Translations under genes and position numbers: made by a program
NCBI GenBank assembly: GCA_003231675.1
Contig: QIJB01000101.1
Coordinates: forward strand, 1 to 25,842
Length of the DNA: 25,842 bases
Source: Candidatus Campbellbacteria bacterium
Lineage (GTDB): Bacteria > Patescibacteriota > Minisyncoccia > UBA9983
Reading direction: 5' to 3'
The notes under the pieces: generated by a model
Told to the model about the DNA's origin: nothing
Database searches by the model: none
The model's input: the letters and a program-made list of their open reading frames with translations, nothing else
In this document: one piece after another, positions 7,375-8,809 of the stretch
Position numbering within the stretch: position 1 is the stretch's first letter
How the letters are laid out: the number at the start of each line of letters is the position of its first letter

Positions 7375-8758
7375 TTAGATTTTTAGGCGGGATGCCAGCT
7401 CTTCAATTTTCACCCTTTCCTGTTCGCCAGTGTCGCGGTCGCGAAGGGTGACGGTATTGTCTTCCAGCGTGTCAAAGTCAACCGTTACGCAATATGGCGT
7501 CCCGATTTCGTCCTGCCTGCGGTATCGTTTGCCGATATTTCCGTTGTCGTCAAAAACAACAGGTTGGATTTCTTTTTTTATCATTTCGTAAACTTCTCTC
7601 GCCTTCGCGACCAACTCCGGCTTATTTTTAAGGAGAGGAAAAACCGCCGCCTTAATCGGAGCGATTTCCGGTTTGAATTTCATAAACACCCTCTTGCCGC
7701 CGGACATTTCGTCTTCGGTGTAAGCTTCACAAAACGCCGCCAGCAAAGCCCTGTCCACCCCGAACGACGGCTCTATCGCATGCGGGACAAATCTTTCTTT
7801 TGGTTCCTCGTCGTAATAGTCAATTTTGTGGTTTTTTAGGTCAAAATCTCCGCGGTACGCCAATCCGACAACCTCGTCATCGCCGAACGGATACTTGTAA
7901 AAAATATCTATGGTCCTTTTTGAATAATGCGCCAAATCATCTTTGGGAACTTCAAAATCGGAAAGACTCCCCGCGGTGATTCCGATACTTTCCAGCCAAC
8001 CGTGAATCTCCGACCGCCAATGCTCAAAAACAGTCTGCCAATCTTCATCATTCTTGGGCGGTTTTATGAAATACTCAATCTCCATTTGCTCAAATTCCCG
8101 CACGCGAAAAAGAAAATCTCCGGGGGTGATTTCGTTCCTGAACGATTTTCCGATCTGGGCGATGCCGAACGGAAGTTTCGGGTGCATTGAATCAACGACA
8201 TTTTTGAAATTTACGAAAATCCCTTGAGCCGTTTCGGGACGAAGATAAATTTGGGAGGCGGTGCCCTCAACCGCCCCAATAAAAGTTTTGAACATCATAT
8301 TGAATTGCTTTTCTTCCGTCAGCTCCCCTCCGCACTCGGGGCACTGTCGGACGGCTTCGTTTCCGTCCCCACCCCGAAGTCGGACTTCGGGGACCCCGAA
8401 GTCCGACTTCGGGGTGGGGGAAATTTTATCAGCCCTGAATCTTTTGTGGCATTTCTTGCATTCAACGAGAGGGTCGGAAAAACCCGCCGTATGCCCGCTC
8501 GCCTCCCACACTTTGGGGTTCATCAAAATGGCGGCGTCAAGTCCGAACATATCCTCCCTGTTCAGAACGAATTTTTTCCACCCACGAATTTTTTATGTTG
8601 TTTTTCAGCAAAACTCCGAGTGGACCGTAATCCCAGACGCCCGCCAACCCGCCGTAAATTTCCGAGCTCTGATACACAAAGCCTCTCCTTTTGGCAAGGC
8701 TTACGATTTTTTCCATTTTACCGTCAATATTGGAACTTTTTGAATTTATGGGTTTCAT
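7375..8758 (-). CDS. glyQS: Glycine--tRNA ligase, homodimeric (GlyQS) type, split by a 1-nt insertion at 8581-8583
   Basis: N-part [15 protein letters not shown]...DYGPLG and C-part [47 protein letters not shown]. Removing one G from TCGTGGGTGG restores [17 protein letters not shown]. The start could be 8758 or 8716. Confidence 0.93.
8367..8419. repeat. Perfect 53-nt palindrome (26-bp arms around a 1-nt centre), built from two 9-bp hairpins, inside the glyQS reading frame
   Basis: ccccaccccgaagtcggacttcgggg-a-ccccgaagtccgacttcggggtgggg; the right arm is the exact reverse complement of the left arm. Confidence 0.97.
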
Positions 8759-8809
8759 TTTACTTCGTCTAATACTAAAATCTTTCTCTGTTTTTCTTCG
8801 CGACAATTC

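Follow-up and report, generated by a model that had tools for sequence, protein, structure and literature searches.

An in-frame nested palindrome in the glycyl-tRNA synthetase gene of a Patescibacteria genome is a probable compact doublet of a REP/RAYT-type hairpin

The glycyl-tRNA synthetase (GlyRS) gene, glyQS, of a Candidatus Campbellbacteria bacterium (GenBank assembly GCA_003231675.1) contains a 53-nt perfect palindrome in frame with its coding sequence. The gene lies on contig QIJB01000101.1, positions 1 to 25,842 of which form the window analyzed here. Very probably, the palindrome is a doublet of a mobile-type repetitive extragenic palindromic (REP) hairpin, that is, a very compact REPIN (REP doublet forming hairpins), and is part of a REP/RAYT (REP-associated tyrosine transposase) system that is patchy in Patescibacteria (class Paceibacteria-like genomes). 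The source genome, G000, has 726 kb in 102 contigs and is 90% complete; other genomes (G), their contigs (C) and loci (L) are numbered likewise, G001 and G002 being from the same genus. Feature coordinates are given in Table 1.

The arms of the palindrome (8367-8392 and 8394-8419) are 26 nt long, 100% complementary and separated by 1 nt, as a preliminary description made from the sequence alone had stated. That description also saw a 9-bp hairpin with a three-base loop nested in each arm. Two nested hairpins are indeed present, but each is a perfect 10-bp stem around a single central base, G in one and C in the other. Both 21-nt units have the general form CCCCGAAGTC-S-GACTTCGGGG, they are 1 nt apart, and five extra paired bases lie outside each of them; the alternative folds are a single 26-bp hairpin or two 10-bp hairpins. 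The hairpin pattern had two matches in the window and none in 100 dinucleotide-preserving shuffles. One long hairpin was predicted both for RNA (107 nt, -65.3 kcal/mol, z -7.6 versus shuffled controls) and for DNA (67 nt, -35.9 kcal/mol, z -9.1 versus shuffled controls). With a GC content of 72%, the palindrome is richer in GC than the genome (42.6%), the preliminary description having noted a contrast with its flanks, and all six frames of the 53-mer are free of stop codons. The 51-nt core (8418 to 8368, minus strand) is exactly 17 codons between the CKKC and CPEC pairs, again as first described, and these encode a Pro/Gly/Ser/Arg-rich insert. The adjoining short hairpin includes a GTCGGAC-GGC-TTCG stretch (encoding ...NEAVRQ) that has no counterpart in G001 and could conceivably be a decayed REP half. 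Rfam gave no family match at any hairpin locus.

Table 1. Features of the glyQS locus (window coordinates) and of hairpin-bearing genes elsewhere (genome:contig:coordinates)
Feature	Coordinates	Strand	Evidence or remark	Locus
53-nt perfect palindrome, probable REP doublet (REPIN-like)	8367..8419	.	arm complementarity and folds	
REP unit 1, CCCCGAAGTC-G-GACTTCGGGG (plus-strand reading)	8372..8392	.	pattern match; identical 21-mer at G000:C37:2499-2519	
REP unit 2, exact reverse complement of unit 1, central C	8394..8414	.	pattern match	
17 in-frame codons, glyQS insert	8368..8418	-	translation; AlphaFold2: low-confidence, probably disordered loop	
Adjoining short hairpin GGACGG-N8-CCGTCC	8346..8368	.	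second small stem in RNA fold	
glyQS C-terminal 391-aa open frame with insert, class II alpha2-type glycine--tRNA ligase	7375..8550	-	PF00587, PF03129; PDB 8u2q, E 9e-112	
glyQS N-terminal part, other frame, conserved ...NSW	8537..8806	-	translation, orthologue alignment	
+1 frameshift, TGGGTGG versus TGGTGG in same-genus orthologue	8578..8584	-	alignment; extra G in run 8581-8583	
MnmA, 56-nt doublet and two single copies	G000:C35:7223-7278			L242
LeuRS, single copy	G000:C35:567-593			
AIR-synthase-family protein, 54-nt doublet	G000:C62:2793-2846			L243
CysRS, 54-nt doublet	G000:C93:2882-2935			L244
PheT, GC-rich palindrome	G000:C22:5844-5875		separate family without demonstrated RAYT link	L245
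GT4 glycosyltransferase, single copy	G000:C42:6328-6352			
RAYT-like gene with internal cognate hairpins	G000:C23:1555-2190			L061
RAYT-like gene with internal cognate hairpins	G000:C20:5986-6680			L062
RAYT-like gene with internal cognate hairpins	G396:C2			L055
RAYT-like genes with internal cognate hairpins				L104, L106-L108

The same hairpin is found at two further loci in G000, as an identical intergenic 21-mer (C37:2499-2519) and as a copy with two mismatches (C8:12636-12656). Of 401 genomes sampled from the class, 11, belonging to six families, contain its 17-nt core, CCGAAGTCSGACTTCGG, whereas a reversed-pattern control gave zero matches everywhere. The core is present in 44 copies (at ~34 sites) in G396, 12 in G180, 10 in G104, eight each in G201 and G250, and four in G001, numbers that are far below those of classical REPs. 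Conservation is confined to the apical 15-17 nt; the basal stem differs between genomes yet stays complementary. In G396 and G180, further doublets are seen, with 1-5 nt between the two units. The G396 copies are mostly intergenic, with at least three sites inside identified domains or genes, and in-frame copies were found in the genes for UvrD, LytR and the RAYT itself. The proposal of the preliminary description that the palindrome is a coding-compatible, mobile-type repeat and not a single-copy sequence is thus upheld.

We also scanned one genome per species for 185,579 species (596 Gb). Among the records listed, those with multiple sites were Patescibacteria (Giovannonibacteria, auto-labelled Saccharibacteria; Sungbacteria with sites on two contigs), and each listed record from another phylum held one core site. 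We estimate ~70 chance matches for a 17-nt palindrome in 596 Gb; the sites outside Patescibacteria are compatible with chance and were not counted as members of the family.

The link to a transposase is seen in the relatives. On contig C2 of G396, a gene encodes a 238-aa protein with the Pfam domain Y1_Tnp (E 1.5e-8, 35.3 bits versus a cut-off of 23); the core is nested upstream of this gene, a doublet lies just downstream, and another doublet is in frame inside it. The following gene encodes a UvrD-type helicase with an in-frame tandem hairpin pair by which LPKSDFGR is encoded twice. We surveyed 23 RAYT-like loci in six genomes and recovered the reading frame at 21 of them; an alignment of RAYT-like proteins conserves the HUH-type motif PNH[YF]HL and a second motif, Y[IV]H.NP. 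Six genes in four other genomes encode proteins at least 50% identical to that of G396. Four of these (G180:C13, G104:C15, G250:C45 and G201:C22) have the core upstream and/or downstream and one copy inside, in the same loop near residue 60; the others are G250:C18, with a different hairpin, and G104:C20, for which our script gave no clear reading frame. RAYT genes flanked by the CCGAAGTCSGACTTCGG core are therefore present in five genomes of three families (G396, G180, G104, G250 and G201). All 15 more distant RAYT genes, including those on C23 and C20 of G000, have their own different hairpins or none that was detected. Because the core flanks RAYT genes in relatives, we interpret the glyQS element as a REPIN-like REP doublet.

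Besides the flanking copies, in-frame copies of the cognate hairpin recur within RAYT-like genes, around residues 60 and 150 and at the 3' end (Table 1). Two contigs of G000 end inside RAYT-like genes (C13:1-460 and C59:1-400), and their GCGACGAAGTCCGGTGTCGTCGC-type hairpin has CGAAGTCCGG in common with the glyQS hairpin; such repeats probably contribute to the fragmentation of the assembly.

For each of the six intergenic copies in the genus, an extended -10-like motif, matching TGTGGYATAAT exactly or closely, is found 5-12 nt away (G000:C8:12600-12660 and C37:2499-2545; L037, L040, L043 and L045 of G001). The hairpins upstream of the RAYT genes of G000 likewise abut TATAAT. Possibly the hairpin moves together with a promoter or is located immediately ahead of one. 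On G015:C10, three cores (4314, 6498 and 8757; L035, L038 and L041) lie within a longer intergenic repeat of at least ~80 nt; they are ~2.2 kb apart and ahead of successive genes.

Several other assignments were rejected. The low copy number and the promoter adjacency had prompted a reading as transcription-factor operator or DNA-uptake sequence, which was set aside as the leading interpretation on the grounds that the apex is conserved with a covarying basal stem and that the core flanks RAYT genes. An intrinsic terminator would not account for a copy in the middle of glyQS or, at C8, between divergent genes, and there is no consistent T-run, the C37 copy having only a weak ATTTT. A CRISPR repeat, intron or intein is unsupported, the core being 51 nt long with no array and no catalytic fold.

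Comparison with orthologues locates the insert in a loop of variable length. In G000, 35 residues separate the two CxxC pairs versus 19 in its closest relative, G001, whose GlyRS is 93% identical. The loop DNA measures 78 versus 30 nt, a net gain of 48 nt (16 residues), and the flanking loop codons are changed too. The preliminary description had proposed to look for an empty site in orthologues; the comparison showed no clean one, and the hairpin is absent from the other glyQS genes examined. As far as the alignment goes, the gain of loop is real but has no clean boundaries. We did not detect a GC-rich hairpin in the glyQS coding sequence of any of 29 relatives or of the 120 best database homologues. 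Among these 120, the CxxC spacing is 13-14 residues in 76 and ranges from 12 to 53; among the 29 relatives, the segment can exceed 40 residues or be absent, several of them lacking the entire zinc-ribbon-like piece. In an AlphaFold2 model (mean predicted local distance difference test score, pLDDT, 72; N-terminus missing), insert residues 48-64 have a pLDDT below 50 and lie between better-modelled zinc-ribbon strands. The alignment with the best solved GlyRS (8u2q) runs straight through a 29-residue loop. Model and alignment would both fit a tolerated surface loop.

These results can be combined into a possible route. As judged from the known family, the RAYT, a Y1 HUH tyrosine transposase, would recognize the folded hairpin on single-stranded DNA, cut it and rejoin it, and hairpins or doublets would thereby be copied to new sites. 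A RAYT-mobilized copy would have landed, or expanded, in the GlyRS loop between the CxxC pairs, which among relatives varies from absent to ~53 residues. With no stop in any frame and a length that is a multiple of three, it would be read through as 17 residues in a predicted disordered loop; the insert would be neutral and GlyRS would presumably stay active. The RAYTs of G000 appear to serve other hairpin families only, which would make the glyQS copy an orphan passenger today.

A number of observations weigh against a mobile REP doublet. The hairpin has just three loci in G000, and the glyQS copy is inside a gene rather than extragenic. The tetranucleotides GTAG and CGTC, one of which is conserved at one end of REPs in the classification of Di Nocera et al and which belong to the cleavage context of E. 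coli TnpA-REP, are not found in or beside the core in G000, G396 or the genomes of family f18. No site of the hairpin family (REP-A) is common to G000 and G001, and intergenic sites (upstream of gyrA in G000 versus G001, and the C37 site versus G002) could not be aligned from one species to another, the intergenic DNA of congeners being too diverged for an empty-site alignment of intergenic REP-A copies. At glyQS itself, there is the net difference of 48 nt with diverged flanks in place of a clean empty site; moreover, the gene carries a frameshift, the doublet is known from a single assembly, and the protein database holds insert-bearing GlyRS from one contig. As for the RAYT-like proteins, their similarity to the reference family is distant: the best NCBIfam match of the G396 protein, REP_Tyr_transpos, scores 37 bits versus a curated cut-off of 80, and no sequence match was found in the PDB. 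Finally, the G000 assembly has no RAYT of the cognate clade, its best match being 41% identical and associated with a different hairpin, and G001, with four hairpin copies, gave no match with one RAYT protein as query; because of these two results, the family looks orphaned in this genus. The RAYT genes that are present in G000 (C23, C20 and C13/C59) carry other hairpins, and we found no truncated REP-A copies at its contig ends. The preliminary description had envisaged a TnpA flanked by the same hairpin, which holds for five relatives but not for the assembly in which the palindrome was found.

Hairpins of this kind are found in further genes of the genome. A perfect-hairpin scan of G000 combined with Pfam domain placement identified other REP-like families in frame in six genes (loci L242-L246), mostly in linkers between or beside Pfam domains. 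The inserts in MnmA, the AIR-synthase-family protein and CysRS are, like the glyQS one, perfect nested palindromes, of 54-56 nt. The CysRS doublet is common to G000 and G002 and the AIR-synthase-family doublet to G000, G001 and G002, all independent assemblies. The AIR-synthase-family site is empty, and cleanly so, in two other genera (G009 and G012) and filled in G000, G001, G002 and G015; in G015, the doublet at this codon position belongs to another REP type. Genome by genome, the REP type inside this gene is the one that is multi-copy in that genome. The MnmA site has the same total length with differing REP types between genomes. Between its B3_4 and B5 domains, the PheT frame (G000:C22:4444-6939; L245:445-2940, minus strand) additionally has a domain of the NlpC/P60 peptidase type (residues 385-454, E 4e-19).

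The doublets in these genes differ between species in a symmetric manner. That of the AIR-synthase-family gene has two mirrored substitution pairs, the palindrome remaining perfect in each of the three congeners (L243/L255/L256/L266). In MnmA, G001 and G002 differ by two mirrored pairs, at positions that are paired only in the long hairpin (L242/L252/L253), and in CysRS (L244/L250) the differences are limited to the central dinucleotide and three unpaired outer-edge bases. These comparisons imply that either one arm is corrected from the other or the long hairpin is under selection. Since mirrored changes keep the arms symmetric, the perfection of the glyQS palindrome is no proof of a recent insertion. 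We tentatively raise the possibility, which we hold to be somewhat less than even, that in-gene REP doublets are actively maintained, with a hairpin/transposase system that continually rewrites loops of essential proteins through conversion or re-insertion at fixed sites, glyQS being one such site in a lineage that has lost the enzyme. The basis of this suggestion, apart from the mirrored pairs, is that the AIR-synthase-family and MnmA positions carry each genome's multi-copy REP type and that genomes without the family are empty.

The mirrored changes also bear on whether the hairpin is retained for a role in the gene or its mRNA, such as RNase III or mRNA-decay control, a translation pause or the binding of a RAYT-like protein. 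The mRNA would form a 25-bp perfect GC-rich helix and the genome encodes RNase III; doublets in other genes remain perfect or near-perfect palindromes across species, and the six intergenic copies of the genus sit next to a -10-like motif. Yet a mutational mechanism alone can yield mirrored changes, the insert positions vary by gene and coincide with variable loops or linkers, and the glyQS copy is unique to G000 among the 29 relatives and 120 homologues. We therefore regard functional retention as unlikely.

Slightly less probable still is a local origin without transposition, in which intrastrand template switching during replication made a short quasi-palindrome in the loop perfect. The 21-nt exact intergenic match and the 17-nt core common to RAYT-flanking hairpins in other families cannot arise by chance locally. 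This outweighs, in our opinion, the features that such an origin would explain well, namely the missing clean empty site in glyQS, arms that are exact reverse complements down to the central bases of the small hairpins, and the mirrored arm differences elsewhere (two pairs each in the AIR-synthase-family and MnmA genes; CysRS varies solely at its central dinucleotide and outer edge), which fit arm-to-arm copying. Template switching may nevertheless explain the step from a single REP to a doublet and the upkeep of symmetry.

An artefact of assembly or amplification, in which fold-back or a de Bruijn graph path through a palindromic k-mer gave rise to the doublet or to the insert as a whole, is very improbable. 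Both flanks are correct, collinear glyQS rather than an inverted upstream copy, the length keeps the frame, and the identical hairpin is present elsewhere in G000 and in other genomes. Equivalent 54-nt doublets lie at orthologous positions in independent assemblies (two for CysRS, three for the AIR-synthase-family gene), and since sister species assembled independently have doublets too, structures of this type are not created by assembly. What would suit an artefact is that the glyQS doublet occurs in one assembly only, that an indel-type frameshift lies 160 nt away in the same gene, that the genome is in 102 contigs and that no matched public run covers the locus. Two runs matched, each with 13% of sampled words; they yielded short contigs of relatives at the edges and none over 8262-8747, which is no evidence either way. 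The exact right-junction pattern and the general doublet pattern, used to look for independent copies, both had zero matches in a metagenome contig collection.

The +1 frameshift, which is absent from the preliminary description, is located ~160 nt upstream of the palindrome and leaves the N-terminal ~70 residues of GlyRS in a separate frame. Both parts are ~93% identical at the protein level to the intact same-genus orthologue and contain no other stop, and neither a second glyQS nor a glyQ/glyS-type gene was found in the 90%-complete genome. Since this is the sole GlyRS gene found and both halves match the orthologue so closely, the frameshift is probably a sequence or assembly error rather than a real lesion. 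A decaying pseudogene, in which the frameshift that splits off the N-terminus and the palindrome would be two of several lesions, is the least likely explanation of all, given a sole and otherwise intact gene, the improbability that an essential gene is dispensable in a 0.7-Mb genome, and the greater simplicity of an indel error. The GlyRS of G002 is only 65% identical to that of G000 and has a long helical-type loop, and the CysRS, MnmA and AIR-synthase-family proteins of G002 are 86-89% identical; this divergence suggests that glyQS was replaced in one lineage.

Ultra-small Patescibacteria genomes have almost no intergenic space, and REP/RAYT-type hairpins survive in them partly inside essential genes. 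At least six housekeeping genes of this 0.7-Mb genome, three of them for aminoacyl-tRNA synthetases, carry such hairpins and gain short loops from them. For annotation, this means that GC-rich coding palindromes of this sort are neither errors nor inteins; in marker-protein alignments, the inserts are to be treated as non-homologous. With regard to the persistence of REPs, perfectly symmetric and species-conserved doublets are a record, left by nature, of how hairpins are maintained. By itself, the glyQS case is a modest contribution, because in-frame REPs and behavior like that of Rickettsia palindromic elements (RPEs) were already known.

The process closest to the symmetric changes is quasipalindrome correction by intrastrand template switching, a mutational mechanism known from E. 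coli. It would keep the arms exact complements, as in the mirrored substitutions of this genus. It is, however, a process and not an element, and it leaves unexplained how one sequence was dispersed to unrelated sites.

Among RPEs, RPE-1 is ~100-150 bp long and specific to Rickettsia, and it is not known to have a dedicated transposase. As cited in Di Nocera et al (2013; PMC3733652), RPEs are palindromic repeats that lie in frame in the housekeeping genes of an organism with a reduced genome and add surface segments to the encoded proteins (Ogata et al, 2000). The glyQS element is like them in being inserted in frame in a housekeeping gene of a reduced genome, a likeness of behavior; unlike them, it is 53 nt long, resides in a different host lineage and is linked to a RAYT in relatives.

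A closer parallel is the REP/REPIN-RAYT system. Ton-Hoang and colleagues reportedly described, in 2012, REP elements with RAYT (TnpA-REP) transposases. Such systems are well described in Proteobacteria (Nunvar, 2010, PMC2817692; Bertels & Rainey, 2011, PMC3116915; PMC5581495). Like these, the hairpins reported here are short and GC-rich and, as inverted doublets, combine into a longer one; they also flank a gene for a Y1 HUH transposase-like protein, and the hairpin sequence differs from one RAYT lineage to the next. The differences are that copies are few (three loci here and at most 44 copies in relatives, versus hundreds), that the inter-REP spacer is 1-5 nt, that there is no GTAG/CGTC tag, that the RAYT-like proteins are distant (below the NCBIfam cut-off), that a genome has several RAYT genes, that many copies are coding, even inside the RAYT, and that the cognate RAYT is not in the G000 assembly.

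In full-text searches we found no paper joining RAYT or REPIN with the candidate phyla radiation, Patescibacteria or Parcubacteria. In-gene REPs as such were reported by Di Nocera et al (2013; PMC3733652). Dimers, which encode 20-30 residues, make up more than half of them; the genes concerned include those for UvrD-type helicases and tRNA synthetases as well as repair genes, and the paper draws a connection to Rickettsia RPEs. The suggestion in the preliminary description that the element might belong to a type of repeat not described before was therefore too strong. The hairpins in G000 and its relatives share with these intragenic REPs the in-frame single copies and dimers and the same kinds of genes; in contrast, the published families are GTAG- or CGTC-tagged and come from Proteobacteria, Opitutus, Rickettsia and others, with no mention of Patescibacteria or Parcubacteria in the text of PMC3733652. 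The in-frame REP is thus a known kind of repeat, to which the palindrome in glyQS adds a new lineage, a new hairpin family, a very compact doublet and an orphan copy.

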